Below are positions 1-59,368 of a stretch of 59,592 bases of DNA, piece after piece. Where the stretch lies: IMG/VR virus record IMGVR_UViG_3300021976_000014, positions 1 to 59,592 of that record, one strand, 5' to 3'. The DNA comes from a virus. Lineage: Duplodnaviria; Caudoviricetes. Each line of letters opens with the position of its first letter. The first letter of the stretch is position 1. Made by a program: the position numbers and the translations under genes. The notes beneath the pieces are model-generated. The model saw only the letters and a list, made by a program, of their open reading frames with translations, ran no database searches and had not been told where the DNA came from.

Positions 1-186
1 CTCCCCTTGTGTGCCGCGCTGTACGGTTTCGACTGTTTGTCCGTTTCCTAAATTCCGGGACAAATACAGACAGTGAAATACCTTTATGTTCAACCGCCGT
101 GGATACTTACCGGCCTGAATATCGGCGCACATCGCTATAGGCATGCGTCAATCACTGCCTCGTCGCCCACAGTCCGGAGGACTGGC

Positions 187-870
187 GTGCCCTACCTCAA
201 CCGCTCTCTGACCAACTTCCGCGCCGCCGTCAACACCAAGTACCCGAGGCGGGATAAGCAATCCGATGGCTGGATTGGCGACGAAGCCCACCAGGCCACC
301 GATTCGGATCACAATCCTGACTCTGACGGCAGTGTAGACGCCTGGGATATGGATGTCGACCTCCGCAGCGGCGATGACCCGGCCGCTATTGAGTCGCTGA
401 AGGCAGTCTTCCAGAGGCACCCAGCCAGCCGTTATTGGATTCACAACCGCTGGATAGCCCACCGAAGTACCGGCTGGAAGCGACAGCCCTATCGCGGTTC
501 GAATCCCCACGACAAACACGTCCACTGGAATTCGGACCAAGCCAACGAAACAAACAACTCCCCCTGGATTTTAGGAGAACACATGGCAGTTACCACTACC
601 GAGATGGATGGCGTAGCCGACATGGTCTGGTATCGCGACACGGACCCTGATGCTGAGGTAAACGAACCTGCTTGGGTTGCACTGCACAACGCCCGCGTCG
701 ACTCCGCAGCCGCCCTTGCGATCGTACGTGGCCTCGAAGGTCGGCCGGTTCCAGGTGTAATCACTGTGGACGCCTCTGCTGTTGCTACGGCGCTTGCGGA
801 GAACGTCACTTTCTTAGCTGCTGTTGCGAAGGCCGTTAACGACGACACGTCCCGCCGGCTGGCTGCGTAA
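187..870 (+). CDS. Endolysin, Zn-peptidase (M15-like) catalytic domain
   Basis: Motifs DGWIGDxAH, SDHNP..VDAWD and HDKHVH. GGAGG RBS precedes the GTG at 187. Confidence 0.7.
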   Translation: MPYLNRSLTNFRAAVNTKYPRRDKQSDGWIGDEAHQATDSDHNPDSDGSVDAWDMDVDLRSGDDPAAIESLKAVFQRHPASRYWIHNRWIAHRSTGWKRQPYRGSNPHDKHVHWNSDQANETNNSPWILGEHMAVTTTEMDGVADMVWYRDTDPDAEVNEPAWVALHNARVDSAAALAIVRGLEGRPVPGVITVDASAVATALAENVTFLAAVAKAVNDDTSRRLAA

Positions 871-1085
871 TGAACTTCGGTGAAGCTCTTGTGGAGCTGC
901 GCAACGGCACTCACGTAACCCGCGCCGGCTGGAATGGCCAAGGGATGTACGTCGCTATGCAGATCCCAGACCGGCAGAGCAAGATGCGCAAGCCCTACCT
1001 CTATATGTGTCCTGTCGATGGCAATTTTGTCCCGTGGGTCGCGTCTCAGTCTGATCTGCTCGCAGACGACTGGCAGGTTGCGTAA
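870..1085 (+). CDS. DUF2829 / Thoeris anti-defence 2 (Tad2)-like protein
   Basis: MNFGEAL..L+.G..V.R.GWNG.GM...PWVASQSDLLADDW is the DUF2829 signature. Confidence 0.85.
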   Translation: MNFGEALVELRNGTHVTRAGWNGQGMYVAMQIPDRQSKMRKPYLYMCPVDGNFVPWVASQSDLLADDWQVA

Positions 1086-1741
1086 TGCTCGATACCCCAA
1101 TTGACGTCGCCGCGACGCTCGCTACGTTCGCAGAAGGCTCTTACGTTCAGGTGCACGACGGTTTGCAGATGTGGAAGCACCCTGACGACCTCGCCAGGCT
1201 GAAAGCCGTGATCGCCGCTACGAAACCCTCAGTGATCGTTGAGACGGGAACGAAGTGGGGTGGTAGTGCTGCTTGGCTCGCCGCTCAAGGCGTAGACGTC
1301 GTCACAGTCGACTGCAACCCCAACGACTCTCTAGAAGCCCGTAGGCGCCCCTCCAGCCGGGTTACGTACCTCTTCGGGGATTCCGTTGACCCTGCCGTCC
1401 TGGAGTCTGTGAAGGAGTCCGTAGGCCGGCGGAAGACCATGGTGATTCTCGACTCCGAGCACGCCTCAGGGCATGTCTTGAAGGAAATCGAAGCCTACGG
1501 GCCCCTCGTGTCGCCTGGCTGCTATCTCGTCATTGAGGACGGCATTTTCGACCTCACCACCGACCACGCACTGAAGAGTCGTGGTGGCTTCAGGATTCCC
1601 ACTGAGGGAGGGCCACTGGTGGCTGTTGAGAAGACTGTCGCCAACGACCCAGCTTGGAAGCGAGACACCCAGATCGAAGCATTGACGCCTCTATCACACA
1701 ACCCCGGCGGCTGGTGGATTCGCCAGAAGGCAAAGAGGTAG
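1085..1741 (+). CDS. CmcI/cephalosporin-hydroxylase family SAM-dependent (sugar) O-methyltransferase
   Basis: Motifs KxPxDL, KPSVIVETGTxxGGSA, VILDSxH, YLVIEDG and NPGGW. Confidence 0.85.
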   Translation: MLDTPIDVAATLATFAEGSYVQVHDGLQMWKHPDDLARLKAVIAATKPSVIVETGTKWGGSAAWLAAQGVDVVTVDCNPNDSLEARRRPSSRVTYLFGDSVDPAVLESVKESVGRRKTMVILDSEHASGHVLKEIEAYGPLVSPGCYLVIEDGIFDLTTDHALKSRGGFRIPTEGGPLVAVEKTVANDPAWKRDTQIEALTPLSHNPGGWWIRQKAKR

Positions 1742-1743
1742 AA

Positions 1744-1953
1744 GTGGCCCCTGAGGAAATTGACAACCGATTCGTGTATCACCCCCCGACGGACGATAAG
1801 ACCAGGGAGACGCATGAGTTTGTGAGGACAACCTTCCGGTTGGCGGCTGAGACCATCAACAACATCCTTCCGGAGGGCCGGGAGAAGGCTATAGCGATGA
1901 CGAAACTAGAAGAGGGTATGTTTTGGGCTAACGCCGCTATCGCGCGGACCTAG
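1744..1953 (+). CDS. Acb2/Tad1-hairpin-like small protein (putative cyclic-nucleotide sponge)
   Basis: EIDNRFxYHPP...PEGREKAIAMTKLEEGMFWANAAIAR resembles the Tad1 RENAIALTxxEExxMW helix. GAGG RBS precedes the GTG. Confidence 0.7.
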   Translation: MAPEEIDNRFVYHPPTDDKTRETHEFVRTTFRLAAETINNILPEGREKAIAMTKLEEGMFWANAAIART

Positions 1954-1960
1954 CAAACCA

Positions 1961-2031
1961 ATGGGCTTGGTGTAGTGGTAACACAGCGGTCCCCAAAACC
2001 GTTGACAGGGGTTCGATTCCTCTAGCCCGTG
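1961..2031 (+). tRNA. tRNA-Trp (CCA) with non-canonical C33, CCA end not encoded
   Basis: Cloverleaf: acceptor ATGGGCT/AGCCCGT, D arm GTGT-AGTGGTA-ACAC, anticodon arm GCGGT-CCCCAAA-ACCGT, T arm AGGGG-TTCGATT-CCTCT, discriminator G. Confidence 0.9.
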
Positions 2032-2417
2032 CTCTGGCTATTTACGCCTTCTTTCCTCAGTGCGTATTGTTCAGCCAGCCACGCCGCGACATCTACACGG
2101 TCAACTACGGTCCATGTATTCGGGGCACCGTCGCTGAGTGTGCGAACCACCAACCCGACGTCAGCGAGACGCCTGAGCGCGGTTTTCGCTTTGGTCGCAG
2201 ACACCCGTCCCTTGCTACCCGGACCTACGCGGTGTGCCCTACTGCGCCCCGGCTCGGTTCGACGGTCTCTCACCGTGCCTTGGACTCCATAGAAGTCCTC
2301 GAAGAAATCCGCGATCTCCTCGGTTGATCCCTTGCCCTCTAGTGCTAGGAGTGCAACAGCAGCTCTCAGCGCCCATCCTGGCGCAACGCGGTCGTCCTGT
2401 GTCATTCCCGTTGCCAT
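2022..2417 (-). CDS. Putative winged-helix DNA-binding protein
   Basis: GGAGG RBS. STEEIA...KAKTALRRLADVGLV..G.PNTW resembles a wHTH recognition helix plus wing. Confidence 0.5.
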   Translation of the reverse strand: MATGMTQDDRVAPGWALRAAVALLALEGKGSTEEIADFFEDFYGVQGTVRDRRTEPGRSRAHRVGPGSKGRVSATKAKTALRRLADVGLVVRTLSDGAPNTWTVVDRVDVAAWLAEQYALRKEGVNSQSTG

Positions 2418-2473
2418 CTAGCACACCTCCATGGACACAAAATGGCTTGCAGACTACCAATCGAGGAATTTAG

Positions 2474-3160
2474 TTGTCAAATCTCGTCATTATGGTGCCT
2501 ACGAAGGGCAGGCCACACGCCGTGGAGCCTCTGATGGAGGCTTTTCGAGGCACTTCCACCGCAGACAGCTCCGTCCTGCTGATTCTGGACGACGAAGACC
2601 CGAATCTAGAGTCTTACAAAACCGAATCGGCGCGTCTTTCCGTCGAATGGGCTATTCAGGACGGCCACAACCTTATAACCGGCCTGAATTTCGGCTACAG
2701 GGCTGTTTCTGATGCCTTCGCGGTCGGATTCATGGGCGACGACCACAGACCAATCACCGTCGGGTGGGATACGGAGTACCTGAAGGCTCTCGCCGACCTC
2801 GGGACGGGGATTGTCTACGGCAACGATCTCCTACAGGGCGAGGCATTGCCTACACAGGTCGCGATGACCGCTGACATCCCTCGTGCCGTCGGTTTCTTCG
2901 CCCCGCCGGGGTTGGTCCATCTCTACTGCGACGACTACTGGAAAGCACTCGGTGAGGGCGCCGGGTGTCTGAAGTACCTGCCATGTGTCACCGTCAGGCA
3001 CATCCACCCCGCTACGGGCGAGATCGAGTGGGATGCCCACCACCGACGGGTTAACGCCCCTGAGATGTACGTCAAGGACTCAGGCTCCTACCGAGCCTTC
3101 AGGATCGCTGGCGGCCTCCAGATGGCCGTAGACGCCGTCAGGGGGCTCAGAGAGCCATGA
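2474..3160 (+). CDS. Glycosyltransferase, GT-A fold (GT2-like)
   Basis: VIMVPTKGRP N-terminus, FMGDDH (DxD-like) motif and HLYCDD. Confidence 0.85.
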   Translation: MSNLVIMVPTKGRPHAVEPLMEAFRGTSTADSSVLLILDDEDPNLESYKTESARLSVEWAIQDGHNLITGLNFGYRAVSDAFAVGFMGDDHRPITVGWDTEYLKALADLGTGIVYGNDLLQGEALPTQVAMTADIPRAVGFFAPPGLVHLYCDDYWKALGEGAGCLKYLPCVTVRHIHPATGEIEWDAHHRRVNAPEMYVKDSGSYRAFRIAGGLQMAVDAVRGLREP

Positions 3161-3765
3161 GTGTAGGTATCGTCCTGCCGTGGCGGGACACGAGCCGTGA
3201 AAGGGCAAAGGCGATGGATACCGTCGTGGCCACCCTCAAGGATGTGCTACCGGAGGCTGTGTTGATCCCGGCCGACAGTTGGCACCAGGATTTCAACAGA
3301 GCCGCCAGCCGGAACGTCGGCGTCCGTGAGGCTCAAAAGCTCGGTTGTGGGGTCGTGGTCGTCTGTGACGCCGACTCCATTCCCGAGGCGGCTCCGCTAC
3401 GTGACGCCATCGCTGGCGCCCCTGACGGGCTCCTGCATCTCCCCTACACGAGGTTCGTCAGCCTCTCCCCGAAGGGTACGGCGCAATACCTGTCTGCGAC
3501 GCCTTGGTGGCTCTGTCACAGCATCCTTGATTGGGGAGACTCCGTGGGTGGGTGTTGGGTGATGACGCCTGAGGCTTGGTTTGCTGCCGGCGGGCAGGAT
3601 GAGCGGTTCTTGGAATGGGGTTGTGAGGACACCGCTTTCAAGGTCGACTGTGACAACAAGCTGGGTGCCACCGTTCGCCACGGCGGCACCCTCGTACACC
3701 TCTACCATCCAGCTACGCGGGAACTGAAAGATCCTGCGACAGCCCTCCTAGCGGAACATCTGTGA
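3157..3765 (+). CDS. Glycosyltransferase, GT2/GT7-like
   Basis: Motifs IVLPWR, FNRAASRNxG, VVCDAD, GGQDERFxxWGCED and HLYH. Confidence 0.85.
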   Translation: MSVGIVLPWRDTSRERAKAMDTVVATLKDVLPEAVLIPADSWHQDFNRAASRNVGVREAQKLGCGVVVVCDADSIPEAAPLRDAIAGAPDGLLHLPYTRFVSLSPKGTAQYLSATPWWLCHSILDWGDSVGGCWVMTPEAWFAAGGQDERFLEWGCEDTAFKVDCDNKLGATVRHGGTLVHLYHPATRELKDPATALLAEHL

Positions 3766-5548
3766 AGCCGAGATCCACGTTTCGCCCGAGCGCCCGAGGC
3801 GCTATGTCCTTCGGAATGGCCATGGCCATCCACATCCCCCGGTCATACGAGAAGCGGATGATGTCGGTTTCGGGACTCATGGAAACTTTAGTCCAGTCTG
3901 GCTGTTCCTCGCTCGTAGCGGCGTAAACCTTGATGCCAGCTTCTATCAGCATCATCCTTTGATCCAAGGTACCCTGTTTAGTCCAGTCCTCTGCATAGGT
4001 GGTGCCGACGCTACGCGTCTCGTACCCGGCATCTCGGGTGGGAGCCGAGGATAGTTCTTCGATCCTCGCCTCTAGCGCCTCGATCTCCTCTGTGTACACC
4101 TCCTGGACGGCAGGAGACTTTCCAGCGGACATCTTGATTGTGTCGCGAAGCTGTGACTTTGTTTCTAGAAGCTCTGCTTCGAACGACACCCCGGGTACGA
4201 ACATCCTCGCCAGCCGATCATGTGGTCCGATGATGTCGAGAAGTAGATCTTCGACCTTGAGGTCAAGTTTATTGATTCGGATGTACTTCGCGATGCAAGT
4301 TCCTTCGATCACCTTGCGAGCCTTCGGAATGGTGGTCTTCGCGCATCGGTAGTAGCCGTATTCCCCGCCGGTCTTCACTCGGGTGGTCCGGAAGGCATAT
4401 AGCGGTGAGTTGCAGTGAGCACAATAGCCAACGTCCAGCAGTAGCGAGTCTTGGCGTCCTCGGTACTTGCGACGGTTCACGCCGTCAAGCGCGTGCTGTA
4501 GGCGCTCCCACTGTTCCCGAGTAATGATCGGGTCGGCGCGGAGTACTGGAGCGGCGTTGGCATCCCTAACAGTCTTGTCGTCGTACGGCGTCTCGCCGAA
4601 GAGTGTTCGACTCCGGAGCGTCCGCTTGACAGTGCCTCCGGTCCACACCATTTTGTGAATAAGTCGTTCGCCTTGGGCTACGGGTTCTCCGTGGTCGACT
4701 GCCCACCGCCCCCCGCGCGGAGACTTCTCTACCGAGTGAGCTTCGCCGGTCGGATCGGTGATGACGAGGTGATCCTTCTCGATCGCCGTTACGATACCGC
4801 TCACGGGAGCGGTTGAGACTGGACGGGCTTGCGACTTATCTCTTGCCTTAGACTTCTCCATCTCGGCTTCCTTGGGTGCGGGTATGCCCTCTGAGTTGAG
4901 CCACACCGCGATGTCCTCAGCGGAGACTTTGTTCATTGCCTTCCTGATCATCTCTTCGGCATATGGAGCCAGCTCGGGGTTACGAATGAGTCGCTGGTTG
5001 TTCTCCCCATCCGCCTTGGTGGGAATGAGGTAGAAGAGATGCTTCCCGCCCGTCCAAAAGCCGTTTTTGACAAGATACTTCTTCGTCTTGCGGTTGCGGC
5101 TGAGGATACGGTTGGCTTCCATCTCCCCGAAGAAGGCGAACATGTAGGCCATAAACTGCACCATCGGGTCTTCGGGGCCGTTGCGATAGTCGAGAATGAA
5201 CGGTGCTCCGCTAATACCGTTGACAAAGTAGATGATCTTCCGGTGTTTGATAGCAAAGTTGCTCAGCGCAGCGAGGTCTTTCATGCTCCGGACGCCCCGG
5301 TCAGCATGAGCCCATATGATGCCCTGGTAGTGGTGTTGTCGCTCTGGGGTCAGCCATGGCCCGATACCGGGTCGCTCGAAGGGGTCGAGCGAGATTGCGG
5401 AGACGTCGAGGTCTTCAGCCCAAATCGTTATCCTAGCCGGGATCTTGGCAGCGTATGCTTTGATATCGTCGCGCTGACTCTGCGGCGACGTCGAGGGGTC
5501 TAGCTCTCCGCCGTGCTTGGAGAGCCTGAGGCCGGCTAGAAGGTCCAT
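3713..5548 (-). CDS. int: Large serine recombinase (integrase)
   Basis: Catalytic RLS..STSPxxQ, DxDVSA, DRxxR and AxxGEME motifs, recombinase domain, CxxC..YYRC zinc ribbon and coiled coil. Start placed at ATG 5548. Confidence 0.95.
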   Translation of the reverse strand: MDLLAGLRLSKHGGELDPSTSPQSQRDDIKAYAAKIPARITIWAEDLDVSAISLDPFERPGIGPWLTPERQHHYQGIIWAHADRGVRSMKDLAALSNFAIKHRKIIYFVNGISGAPFILDYRNGPEDPMVQFMAYMFAFFGEMEANRILSRNRKTKKYLVKNGFWTGGKHLFYLIPTKADGENNQRLIRNPELAPYAEEMIRKAMNKVSAEDIAVWLNSEGIPAPKEAEMEKSKARDKSQARPVSTAPVSGIVTAIEKDHLVITDPTGEAHSVEKSPRGGRWAVDHGEPVAQGERLIHKMVWTGGTVKRTLRSRTLFGETPYDDKTVRDANAAPVLRADPIITREQWERLQHALDGVNRRKYRGRQDSLLLDVGYCAHCNSPLYAFRTTRVKTGGEYGYYRCAKTTIPKARKVIEGTCIAKYIRINKLDLKVEDLLLDIIGPHDRLARMFVPGVSFEAELLETKSQLRDTIKMSAGKSPAVQEVYTEEIEALEARIEELSSAPTRDAGYETRSVGTTYAEDWTKQGTLDQRMMLIEAGIKVYAATSEEQPDWTKVSMSPETDIIRFSYDRGMWMAMAIPKDIAPRALGRNVDLGFTDVPLGGLSQDLSVPA

Positions 5549-5564
5549 AGCAAATGATCCTACA

Positions 5565-5610
5565 TCATCATTGGTGGTTCCTGGTGACCAGCAGGGCGAG
5601 CTAATGATGA
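5565..5610. other. attP: Candidate attP site
   Basis: 46-bp imperfect inverted repeat TCATCATT-N30-AATGATGA with inner CCTG.TG symmetry around a central AC/GT dinucleotide (5587-5588), directly upstream of int. Confidence 0.65.
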
Positions 5611-5849
5611 AGGGCTCCGCAGAAGAAACCCCCTGGTCAGAGCCGGCGCCCGCCTTCCTCGCCTGATCGGTTGTCGGCGCTCCGGAGAGCGCCACGCTAG
5701 CCCGACCCTCACCACGAGGGCGGGCTATTTCTTTGCCACCCGATACCCGATTTGCCATTTCTCTTGCACCCCATTCCGATTAAGTAGCCCATCTATTCGA
5801 CTCTAAAAGCTGCGTCCATAGTACACCACACCCCGACCCCGGAGGTTCA

Positions 5850-6323
5850 ATGAGCGACCGCAAAGACGAAGACCGCGTAAACCGCAACCCTTTAATTCAC
5901 AACATCGGAAACCTCCAGTGGGACGGCGTCAGGCGTGGCGCAGAGCTGCCCGAAGGCTACGAATGGTGCGACATGACGCAGCGGTGGTGGAATATCTGGC
6001 GAGACAGCCCTCAGGCAATGATGATGTCAGAGACCGACTGGCAGGAAATGCTCCTGTCCGCCAGGCTCCATAATTACATCTGGGGAATGCATATGGTCGT
6101 TGACAAGACCAACGGTGGGTTTATCTACACCGACTGCGACCCCAAGGACGCTAAGGCTTGCGCCTCGGAACTCCGGATCAGGCTCGAAAAGATGGGAGCC
6201 ACGATCAAAGACCGTGGCTCCCTCGGAATGCGTATCAACACCGGCCCGGCGGATGTCACGGCCGAAGCCGAGAAGATCACCAAGCAGTCCGCAGTTAACT
6301 ACCGCGACGCCCTAGGCGCCTAG
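5850..6323 (+). CDS. terS: Terminase small subunit
   Basis: T.RWW..WR.SPQA......DW..L...A.LH...ELR.R..K.GAT..DR pattern of actinophage terS; lies upstream of terL. Confidence 0.75.
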   Translation: MSDRKDEDRVNRNPLIHNIGNLQWDGVRRGAELPEGYEWCDMTQRWWNIWRDSPQAMMMSETDWQEMLLSARLHNYIWGMHMVVDKTNGGFIYTDCDPKDAKACASELRIRLEKMGATIKDRGSLGMRINTGPADVTAEAEKITKQSAVNYRDALGA

Positions 6324-59193: not shown

Positions 59194-59368
59194 CCGTCTA
59201 TGGGGCTCGTCCGTCCTATGTGCACAACGCTACCGTCCTATGTGCACACTGCCCATAGACGGCACTCTATATAGTCATAGATGCCTATCCATATGTGCAC
59301 AGTAGACAGTTTAGATAGACATACATCTTTGTATTACTATGCACTCAAGGGCTACTGTGTGTGCACAC
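59194..59368. repeat. Right-end repeats (packaging/operator-like)
   Basis: CCGTCCTATGTGCACA twice (59211, 59233) inside the inverted repeat CCGTCTATGGG/CCCATAGACGG; two further TGTGCACA copies. Confidence 0.7.

Follow-up and report, generated by a model that had tools for sequence, protein, structure and literature searches.

Candidate signal sponges of two different families lie interleaved with a putative glycan-methylation module at the left end of a temperate actinophage genome

Do the small genes packed at the left end of IMGVR_UViG_3300021976_000014 encode sponges that trap immune signals, and do they form a single anti-defence operon? This IMG/VR record, rated 100% complete by CheckV, was analysed over its whole length of 59,592 bp (here denoted the window); its GC content is even, at about 59%. 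The first-pass annotation, made from the sequence letters, had pointed to an open reading frame (ORF) with a DUF2829 signature and another with a YHPP motif, flanking a methyltransferase and translationally coupled behind an endolysin, and had read them as a compact anti-defence island. We confirmed these ORFs and their motifs in place, within a string of four tightly packed plus-strand ORFs (73/187-870, 870-1085, 1085-1741 and 1744-1953):

187 to 870, plus strand: probable endolysin-like protein, first in the coupled string; the longest ORF starts at GTG 73, and homologues favour a start near GTG 187.
870 to 1085, plus strand: candidate minimal Tad2-type (DUF2829) sponge of 71 amino acids; Pfam PF11195, expectation value (E) 2e-25; Foldseek matches to Tad2.
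1085 to 1741, plus strand: S-adenosylmethionine methyltransferase of the CmcI/rhamnosyl-O-methyltransferase family, 218 amino acids; PF04989, E 2.7e-34.
1744 to 1953, plus strand: candidate hairpin-only sponge of the Acb2/Tad1 family, 69 amino acids, GTG start; PF24729, E 2.2e-18.

Read from the sequence, the first three genes are joined by TAATG stop/start overlaps at 868-872 and 1083-1087, and the methyltransferase stop codon TAG (1739-1741) is followed after two bases by the GTG of the hairpin gene at 1744, with a Shine-Dalgarno AAGAGG 5 nt upstream. In line with the coupling proposed, the genes thus overlap or nearly abut, stop to start. We consider it probable that the left end of this temperate actinophage carries a sponge pair, one of Tad2 type and one built of a hairpin only, interleaved with a glycan-methylation module. 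Two different sponge families, PF11195 and PF24729, are present as had been claimed. Both small genes clearly add to sponge families already known, in a gene arrangement that is also of a familiar kind, and the strategy is not new.

The Tad2-like protein encoded at 870-1085 matched PF11195 with 89.6 bits (cut-off 25) over profile positions 1-72 of 73. A phmmer search of the Protein Data Bank (PDB) matched seven distinct sequences, all of them Tad2/AcrIIA7, with E from 1.4e-12 to 5.5e-10. The AlphaFold2 (AF2) model, built on an alignment with 85 relatives, reached a predicted local distance difference test (pLDDT) value of 94.5, and its comparison with the PDB by Foldseek gave 24 matches at E<=1e-3; among the matches listed all are Tad2 (TMq 0.82-0.91, E 3e-7 to 5e-6), and rank 25 already had E 0.14. 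About 50 of the 85 relatives are 71-75 amino acids long and 59-74% identical to the protein, Amycolatopsis prophage copies included. The likeness to solved Tad2 proteins (SPO1 Tad2, 8SME and 8WJE; MoTad2, 8V3E and 9EIB; HgmTad2/AcrIIA7, 8KBI-8KBM) therefore extends over Pfam family, fold and, as described below, the pocket for the Thoeris signal glycocyclic ADP-ribose (gcADPR).

The residues reported to contact gcADPR in HgmTad2 (Li et al., bioRxiv 10.1101/2023.11.15.567273) were mapped onto the protein through the phmmer alignment, with the numbering checked on R31, M76, N85 and D93. Eight of the 11 are identical, two are conservative replacements and one is different (HgmTad2 residue first, residue in 870-1085 second):

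W21, W21: identical.
N22, N22: identical.
G23, G23: identical.
M76, M46: identical.
A78, P48: different.
V84, V54: identical.
W87, W56: identical.
L88, V57: conservative.
S90, S59: identical.
T92, S61: conservative.
D93, D62: identical.

All 85 relatives retain W21, N22, W56 and D62, and conservation is at least 90% at G23, V54, V57 and S59. The second pocket of HgmTad2, which takes cyclic dinucleotides, is described in the same preprint as a beta2-beta5 insertion of 35-41 residues with R31, S47, F70 and N85. HgmTad2, SptTad2 and SaTad2 carry this insertion, whereas in the 71-residue protein the alignment and the AF2 model leave a loop of about 11 residues after beta2 (32-42), R31 is replaced by Q31 and N85 falls in a gap. 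Because the insertion is missing, R31 is a glutamine and N85 is deleted, a cyclic-dinucleotide pocket is not expected here. Alignment and model together point to a minimal Tad2 that retains the pocket for ADP-ribose (ADPR)-derived signals alone. Such a protein would assemble as the Tad2 tetramer, and its W21-N22-G23/W56-S59-D62 pocket would trap ADPR-derived Thoeris signals of the gcADPR/3' cyclic ADP-ribose (3'cADPR) class. A literature search joining DUF2829 with actinobacteriophage found no paper.

Some of the PDB chains matched by phmmer bear the name AcrIIA7 or 'Inhibitor of Type II CRISPR-Cas system' (8kbi, 9kzr), and one homologue from a Klebsiella phage is annotated as an anti-CRISPR protein. 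These labels would make the DUF2829 protein an AcrIIA7-type anti-CRISPR and not a Thoeris sponge. However, the portion of the HgmTad2 preprint available to us reports that inhibition of Cas9 by HgmTad2/AcrIIA7 was not reproduced in vitro or in vivo, and that the same protein is a sponge for gcADPR and cyclic di-GMP (cGG) (bioRxiv 10.1101/2023.11.15.567273). We regard an anti-CRISPR role as highly improbable and retain the Tad2 assignment.

The fourth ORF, 1744-1953, reads ...FVYHPP...PEGREKAIAMTKLEEGMFWANAAIART, and matched the Pfam family PF24729 (Acb2_Tad1_hairpin) with 66.6 bits (cut-off 27) over profile positions 2-58 of 58. A longer version of the gene starting at TTG 1654 was rejected, as it would overlap the methyltransferase by 88 nt and homologues begin 6-10 residues before the NRF motif. 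The family is large, with 3359 cluster representatives at E<=1e-3, and in 94 relatives F10, H13, H24, R28, A35, P43, R46, E47, T53, E56, E57, W61, N63, A64, A67 and R68 are nearly invariant. The AF2 model (pLDDT 90.8) consists of a short N-terminal helix, a loop bearing the YHPP motif and two long antiparallel helices, 18-41 and 46-68. Searching the PDB with the profile of the 94 relatives matched Acb2_43 (9ptq) with E 3.9e-12, CbTad1 with 2e-4 and CmTad1 with 6.6e-3.

In the solved relatives, an arginine and a threonine seven residues apart (CbTad1 R90/T97, CmTad1 R88/T95, PaMx33 Acb2 R67/T74) bind the phosphates of cyclic tri-AMP (cA3) or cyclic AMP-AMP-GMP (cAAG) in three-fold pockets, and in Tad1 this pair additionally holds the hexamer together. 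By profile alignment R46 and T53 of the hairpin protein fall on CbTad1 R90/T97, and each is at least 90% conserved in the 94 relatives. The spacing R46-x2-A49-I50-x2-T53 equals that of PaMx33 R67/A70/I71/T74, and K54, E57 and W61 occupy the places of the CmTad1 interface residues K96, E99 and W103. The likeness to Tad1 (CbTad1, 7UAV/8KBE; CmTad1, 8KBB) is thus to its C-terminal hairpin, with the R/T pair and the interface residues; the protein lacks the N-terminal beta-sheet domain and aligns to CbTad1 residues about 51-107 only. With canonical Acb2 (PaMx33, 8H2J/8H2X; JBD67; T4 Vs.4, 7UQ2) it has in common the Pfam domain family and the R-x2-A-I-x2-T spacing; Y11/K26 of the canonical pocket for cyclic dinucleotides would correspond to Y12 or H13, and R28, in an approximate structural register only. 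The JBD67 acb2 gene sits between head and adaptor genes, and the hairpin gene likewise lies among late-type genes.

The best solved relative, Acb2_43 (9PTQ), has 76 amino acids to the 69 found here, and both have the helix hairpin with a PEGREKS..TKLEEAMF core. The available part of the study by Hadary et al. (bioRxiv 10.1101/2025.08.24.671296) describes Acb2_43 as a binder of 3'cADPR that blocks type I Thoeris and does not block the two tested cyclic oligonucleotide-based antiphage signalling systems (CBASS), one using cyclic GMP-AMP (cGAMP) and one cyclic UMP-AMP (cUA); its CBASS screening, as described there, covered the cGAMP and cUA systems only and no cyclic-trinucleotide system. The reported contacts of Acb2_43 to 3'cADPR are T4, H5, L6 and V7 of beta1, K19 and K55, plus the beta2 strand. 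K19 corresponds to R28 of the hairpin protein; T4-H5-L6-V7 has no HMM (hidden Markov model) alignment to it, and H5 comes to lie on H13 by ungapped extrapolation only.

A four-copy model of the hairpin protein gave an ipSAE interface score of 0.63, compared with 0.01 for the best control, with a run-to-run contact agreement of at least 93% and a partner pLDDT of at least 73, a score that may mirror likeness to the Acb2 and Tad1 complexes already solved. Of 30 solved one-chain pairs, 20 attained the ipSAE mark used with this complex predictor; of 23 single chains, one did. The model shows a hairpin-hairpin dimer with inter-dimer contacts at residues 50, 53 and 57; it supports self-association of the predicted protein, in a model of four chains rather than six. 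By analogy with its relatives, we infer that the 69-residue protein would assemble into an Acb2/Tad1-like hexamer, whose three-fold pockets (R46, A49, I50, T53) would sequester cyclic trinucleotides, for instance cA3 or cAAG. The N-terminal F10/Y12/H13 together with R28 may make a second pocket, for a dinucleotide or 3'cADPR. Two IMG/VR loci (L119 and L147) have two PF24729-like hits each within 8 kb, which may be tandem sponge paralogues.

Does the methyltransferase between the two sponge candidates belong with them? All three genes are translationally coupled in one string, and they could form one anti-defence operon, as the earlier reading implied, in which the methyltransferase might modify the signal, the sponges or DNA. 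The methyltransferase matched PF04989 (RMNT_CmcI) with 119.2 bits (cut-off 23.2), which assigns it to the sugar O-methyltransferase/CmcI type and argues against such a role. It scored 66.5 bits with NF045824, the NCBIfam equivalog of rhamnosyl O-methyltransferase, far below the cut-off of 400, and is therefore not the mycobacterial rhamnosyl O-methyltransferase. Among named relatives, a CmcI-family methyltransferase from Plantactinospora solaniradicis is the closest (63% identity). A tblastn search of 50,697 GenBank phage records with the methyltransferase gave no match; relatives were found in 83 IMG/VR stretches, from which 80 loci (739 kb) were kept for the analysis of neighbourhoods. To follow these neighbourhoods, the features downstream of the coupled string are needed:

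1961 to 2032, plus strand: tRNA-Trp (CCA), found by ARAGORN, 8 nt past the hairpin gene.
2022 to 2417, minus strand: ORF of 131 amino acids; sub-threshold Pfam match to DUF7122, E 0.082.
2474 to 3160, plus strand: glycosyltransferase, denoted GT1; phrog_14945 glycosyltransferase, E 2.8e-37.
3157 to 3765, plus strand: second glycosyltransferase, denoted GT2; phrog_1721 galactosyl transferase, E 5.1e-21; weak matches to Pfam Glyco_transf_7C/7N.
3713 to 5758, minus strand: large serine recombinase (integrase); NCBIfam XisF/CcrB-type recombinase matches below cut-off; homologue (E 2e-80) in a Micromonospora relative, locus L246.

The recombinase marks the phage as temperate. A homologue of GT1 was found within 5 kb of the methyltransferase in 60 of the 80 loci, usually directly downstream on the same strand, whereas a Tad2-like or hairpin gene was near it in none of the 80. 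Conversely, the methyltransferase occurred in none of the 160 sponge-centred loci (80 IMG/VR loci, 540 kb, centred on Tad2-like genes, and 80 centred on hairpin genes). Since its regular neighbour is GT1 (60/80) and never a sponge gene (0/80), the methyltransferase stands outside the anti-defence pair; it is part of a methyltransferase-glycosyltransferase module separate from the sponges. In the window the hairpin gene, the tRNA and the antisense ORF stand between it and its usual glycosyltransferase partner, and the 131-residue ORF on the opposite strand, if real, divides the coupled string from the glycosyltransferases. This ORF, which shares 11 nt with the 3' end of the tRNA, had no PHROG or NCBIfam match and might encode a small DNA-binding regulator.

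A tblastn search with GT1 matched 71 phage records, 63 of them Streptomyces phages (Actinoplanes phage phiAsp2 at 34%), mostly annotated as glycosyltransferase. In cluster O mycobacteriophages, cassettes of an O-methyltransferase and glycosyltransferases are reported to modify capsid and tail-tube proteins of the virion (PMC11600133, citing Freeman et al. 2023; PMC4351075, as far as these sources are available to us), a further argument against a role of the methyltransferase in anti-defence. There too (Corndog gp35-38) a gene of O-methyltransferase type lies upstream of glycosyltransferase genes in an actinophage; however, the methyltransferases are not detectably related by tblastn, and the relatives of GT1 are in Streptomyces and Actinoplanes phages, none of them in mycobacteriophages. 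By this analogy the methyltransferase and the glycosyltransferases downstream of it would produce an O-methylated glycan, the most likely carriers being virion proteins. Several methyltransferases of the neighbourhood set (loci L165-L244) lie in stop-to-stop frames of about 500-560 codons (e.g. L213, L218 and L201), which suggests fusion with an upstream domain.

When the loci centred on Tad2-like genes are searched, a hit to the hairpin family at E<=1e-3 is present in 9 of 80 loci. In seven of them the hairpin gene (E<1e-5) lies on the same strand, 11-122 bp from the Tad2-like gene on either side, with the two sponge genes directly adjacent and no gene between them. None of the 80 methyltransferase loci, taken as control, has a hit of either kind (Fisher p 0.003 for the nine hits and 0.014 for the seven). 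Direct adjacency in these seven loci is a further result against a three-gene operon, which we consider very unlikely. In the window the two sponge genes are 658 bp apart, a gap taken up by the methyltransferase, so that the two modules are interleaved. Of the compact anti-defence island originally proposed, the tight packing of two sponge families on one strand stood and the inclusion of the methyltransferase did not. According to the available text on AntiDefenseFinder, 17.8% of anti-defence systems in phages have another such system no more than 1 kb away (PMC11724313), and a multi-sponge hotspot is described in N4-like phages (bioRxiv 10.64898/2026.06.04.730250, in the part accessible). 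In these published islands, as here, several inhibitors of signalling immunity lie within about 1 kb; unlike them, the pair described here is at the left end of a temperate actinophage, after a probable endolysin, and interleaved with a glycan module and a tRNA.

The portal protein is 81% identical to that of a prophage on a Plantactinospora solaniradicis contig and 64% identical to that of a prophage of Micromonospora sp. CB01531. The host is a Micromonosporaceae-type actinomycete, with Plantactinospora and Micromonospora prophages as the relatives of the phage. Of 151 genomes sampled from the family of the Plantactinospora genome (one, G067, is unpublished), 21 have SMODS/CD-NTase domains and 35 have ThsB_TIR domains, four of the latter being strong stand-alone matches. 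As both kinds of domain occur in this bacterial family, plausible targets of the sponges exist in the host clade. Upstream of its terminase, the Micromonospora relative (L246) carries a hairpin gene, a homologue of the first ORF of the string (73/187-870, here denoted ORF1), the serine recombinase and a GT1 homologue; within the stretch examined it has no Tad2-like gene and no methyltransferase. The left end is therefore an accessory region that shuffles.

The first-pass annotation had raised the possibility of new ligand specificities. As judged from alignment, the pocket residues argue for ligands of known classes, which for the Tad2-like protein are ADPR-derived signals and for the hairpin protein cyclic trinucleotides. 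In the study by Hadary et al. (bioRxiv 10.1101/2025.08.24.671296, in the part available to us), 65 of 84 tested homologues of Acb2, Tad1 and Tad2 inhibited at least one signalling system. A number of results nevertheless count against reading both proteins as sponges for such signals. In the same study 19 of the 84 homologues inhibited none of the seven systems tested. Canonical Acb2 was absent from the matches of the hairpin profile in the PDB, and hhalign of the hairpin family with JBD67 Acb2 gave a non-significant E of 0.38. Foldseek with the hairpin monomer found nothing in the PDB at E<=1e-3, in a search that is not diagnostic for a monomer of this fold, and VIA-align placed T4 Vs.4 (Z 6.6), PaMx33 Acb2 (Z 5.6) and CmTad1 (Z 5.1) amid unrelated helical hairpins of equal Z. 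In the relatives themselves the T4 Acb2 D61R variant still fails to bind cA3, which makes the R/T pair necessary and not sufficient. Acb2_43 K55 corresponds to A64 in the hairpin protein, and the C-terminal beta2 strand of Acb2_43 is missing, as the protein ends at residue 69; the C-terminal lid of Tad1 is missing as well, with R109/R113 of the Tad1 gcADPR pocket replaced by A65/T69, and the C-terminal tail of canonical Acb2 (P90) is absent. SMODS was not found in the two genomes bearing related prophages (G001 and G002). Finally, of the 80 loci centred on hairpin genes just one includes a Tad2-like neighbour, on a contig shared with one of the seven loci above; the pairing of the two families is accordingly recurrent but occasional, and not obligate.

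Because monomer fold searches cannot discriminate among helical hairpins, the sequence evidence decides the family placement of the hairpin protein. The first-pass annotation had called it Acb2/Tad1-like and had named profile searches, oligomer prediction and pocket comparison as checks. Both profile searches recovered the expected Pfam families, and for the Tad2-like protein the solved fold and the gcADPR pocket were matched, too. For the hairpin protein membership in PF24729 held, canonical Acb2 was not reached, and the hairpin-only form proved nearest to Acb2_43 and the Tad1 hairpin; likewise its self-association was predicted with four copies, and the monomer fold match was uninformative.

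The results gathered above leave room for another explanation, in which the two proteins are true members of their families and yet no sponges for known signals, either because they bind an undiscovered actinobacterial signal or because they have another role. For the 19 inactive homologues Hadary et al. suggest, in the available text, signals that are not yet known (bioRxiv 10.1101/2025.08.24.671296). In Acb2, Acb2_43 and Tad1 the vertex pocket is completed by C-terminal elements that the hairpin protein does not have. Our search found no paper on a tested actinophage sponge, and the accessible part of PMC11953737 states that what Acb2 homologues do during mycobacteriophage infection is unknown. 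Against this explanation, the Tad2-like protein keeps the gcADPR pocket nearly residue for residue, and this pocket is also conserved across its 85 relatives; within the hairpin family, conservation of the R46/T53 cyclic-trinucleotide/hexamer motif is 90% or more, and CD-NTase and ThsB-TIR genes are present in the host family. We consider it unlikely on balance, though worth keeping in view, and continue to favour sponges for the known classes of signal. A narrower proposal is that the hairpin-only subfamily may bind an undescribed actinobacterial immune signal, since every accessory vertex-pocket element of Acb2, Acb2_43 and Tad1 is missing from it, and that its recurrent pairing with the minimal Tad2 (7/80) may be the sign of a module of two co-selected sponges that complement each other in specificity. 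We put this forward as a speculation that is rather doubtful at present.

Is the gene in front of the sponge pair an endolysin? ORF1 had no match in Pfam or NCBIfam and no significant phmmer match in the PDB; its PHROG is phrog_32486, of unknown function, and a profile search of the PDB gave only a weak match to a LysM protein (E 0.46). In the ESM Atlas it fell among unnamed viral clusters only, one of which has PF26571 assigned to 16% of its members. Homologues of ORF1 directly precede annotated holins in Actinoplanes phage phiAsp2 (Pas66/Pas67) and Glutamicibacter phage Montesquieu (MONT_30/31). An alignment of five sequences has invariant H35, H42, D45, D54, D56, H108, H111 and H113 (in the numbering of 187-870), and one of the five carries PG_binding_1 (E 5.6e-4). 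At the locus of the closest relative of the Tad2-like protein (66% identity), an ORF1 homologue and ORFs for membrane proteins lie just upstream of the Tad2-like gene. A PHROG scan of ten other ORFs (nine at 19.5-26.1 kb, plus 5850-6323) gave no lysin; its matches were tail proteins, a lectin-like protein, a weak holin-like hit, a thymidylate synthase and a terminase small subunit/minor tail match. The endolysin label given earlier thus drew no family match and gained from the holin-adjacent homologues, the invariant histidines and aspartates and the PG_binding_1 domain of one member; it is plausible. The members of the family (window 73-870; L246 2627-3307; L003 2950-3717; phiAsp2 Pas66; Montesquieu MONT_30) probably have an undescribed endolysin catalytic domain in common.

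In the remainder of the genome, the terminase and portal genes come after the serine recombinase. A megablast search with positions 1-6000 of the window against the 50,697 phage records gave no match, and a promoter scan of positions 1-4000, of a kind that covers actinobacterial promoters poorly, gave no plus-strand sigma-70-like site. The non-coding right end holds three exact copies of ATGTGCACA within 84 bp (59218-59301; chance expectation 0.16) and a further near-copy at about 59360. If the genome is circular these repeats lie upstream of the ORF1 string, and a role as operator or origin repeats is conceivable. Mycobacterium phage Curiosium (NC_051618.1, 774-1433) has a DUF2829 gene at its left end as well, followed by one small gene, tRNA-Trp(cca) and then the terminase. 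The window and Curiosium are alike in having a left-end DUF2829 gene with tRNA-Trp(CCA) within about 1 kb and the terminase genes after it; the intervening gene differs. The small gene downstream of DUF2829 in Curiosium (gene 5) was compared as a possible homologue of the hairpin gene and is unrelated.

What the locus adds to known sponge biology are residue-level predictions, the split of the methyltransferase into a module of its own, the recurrent pairing of two sponges and the assignment of a host. The methyltransferase-glycosyltransferase module, present in at least 60 uncultured phages with its methyltransferase in no cultured phage record searched, illustrates that tight translational coupling need not mean shared function. 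Nearly all sponges characterised so far come from phages that infect Bacillus, Pseudomonas, Escherichia or gut Bacteroides. The locus offers two compact candidates from a phage of the antibiotic-producing Micromonosporaceae, each with predictions at the level of single residues: a Tad2 apparently reduced to the pocket for ADPR-derived signals, and a 69-residue hairpin with the cyclic-trinucleotide/hexamer motif alone. If the proposal of an undescribed actinobacterial signal is true, the two-sponge module could serve as bait for finding it.

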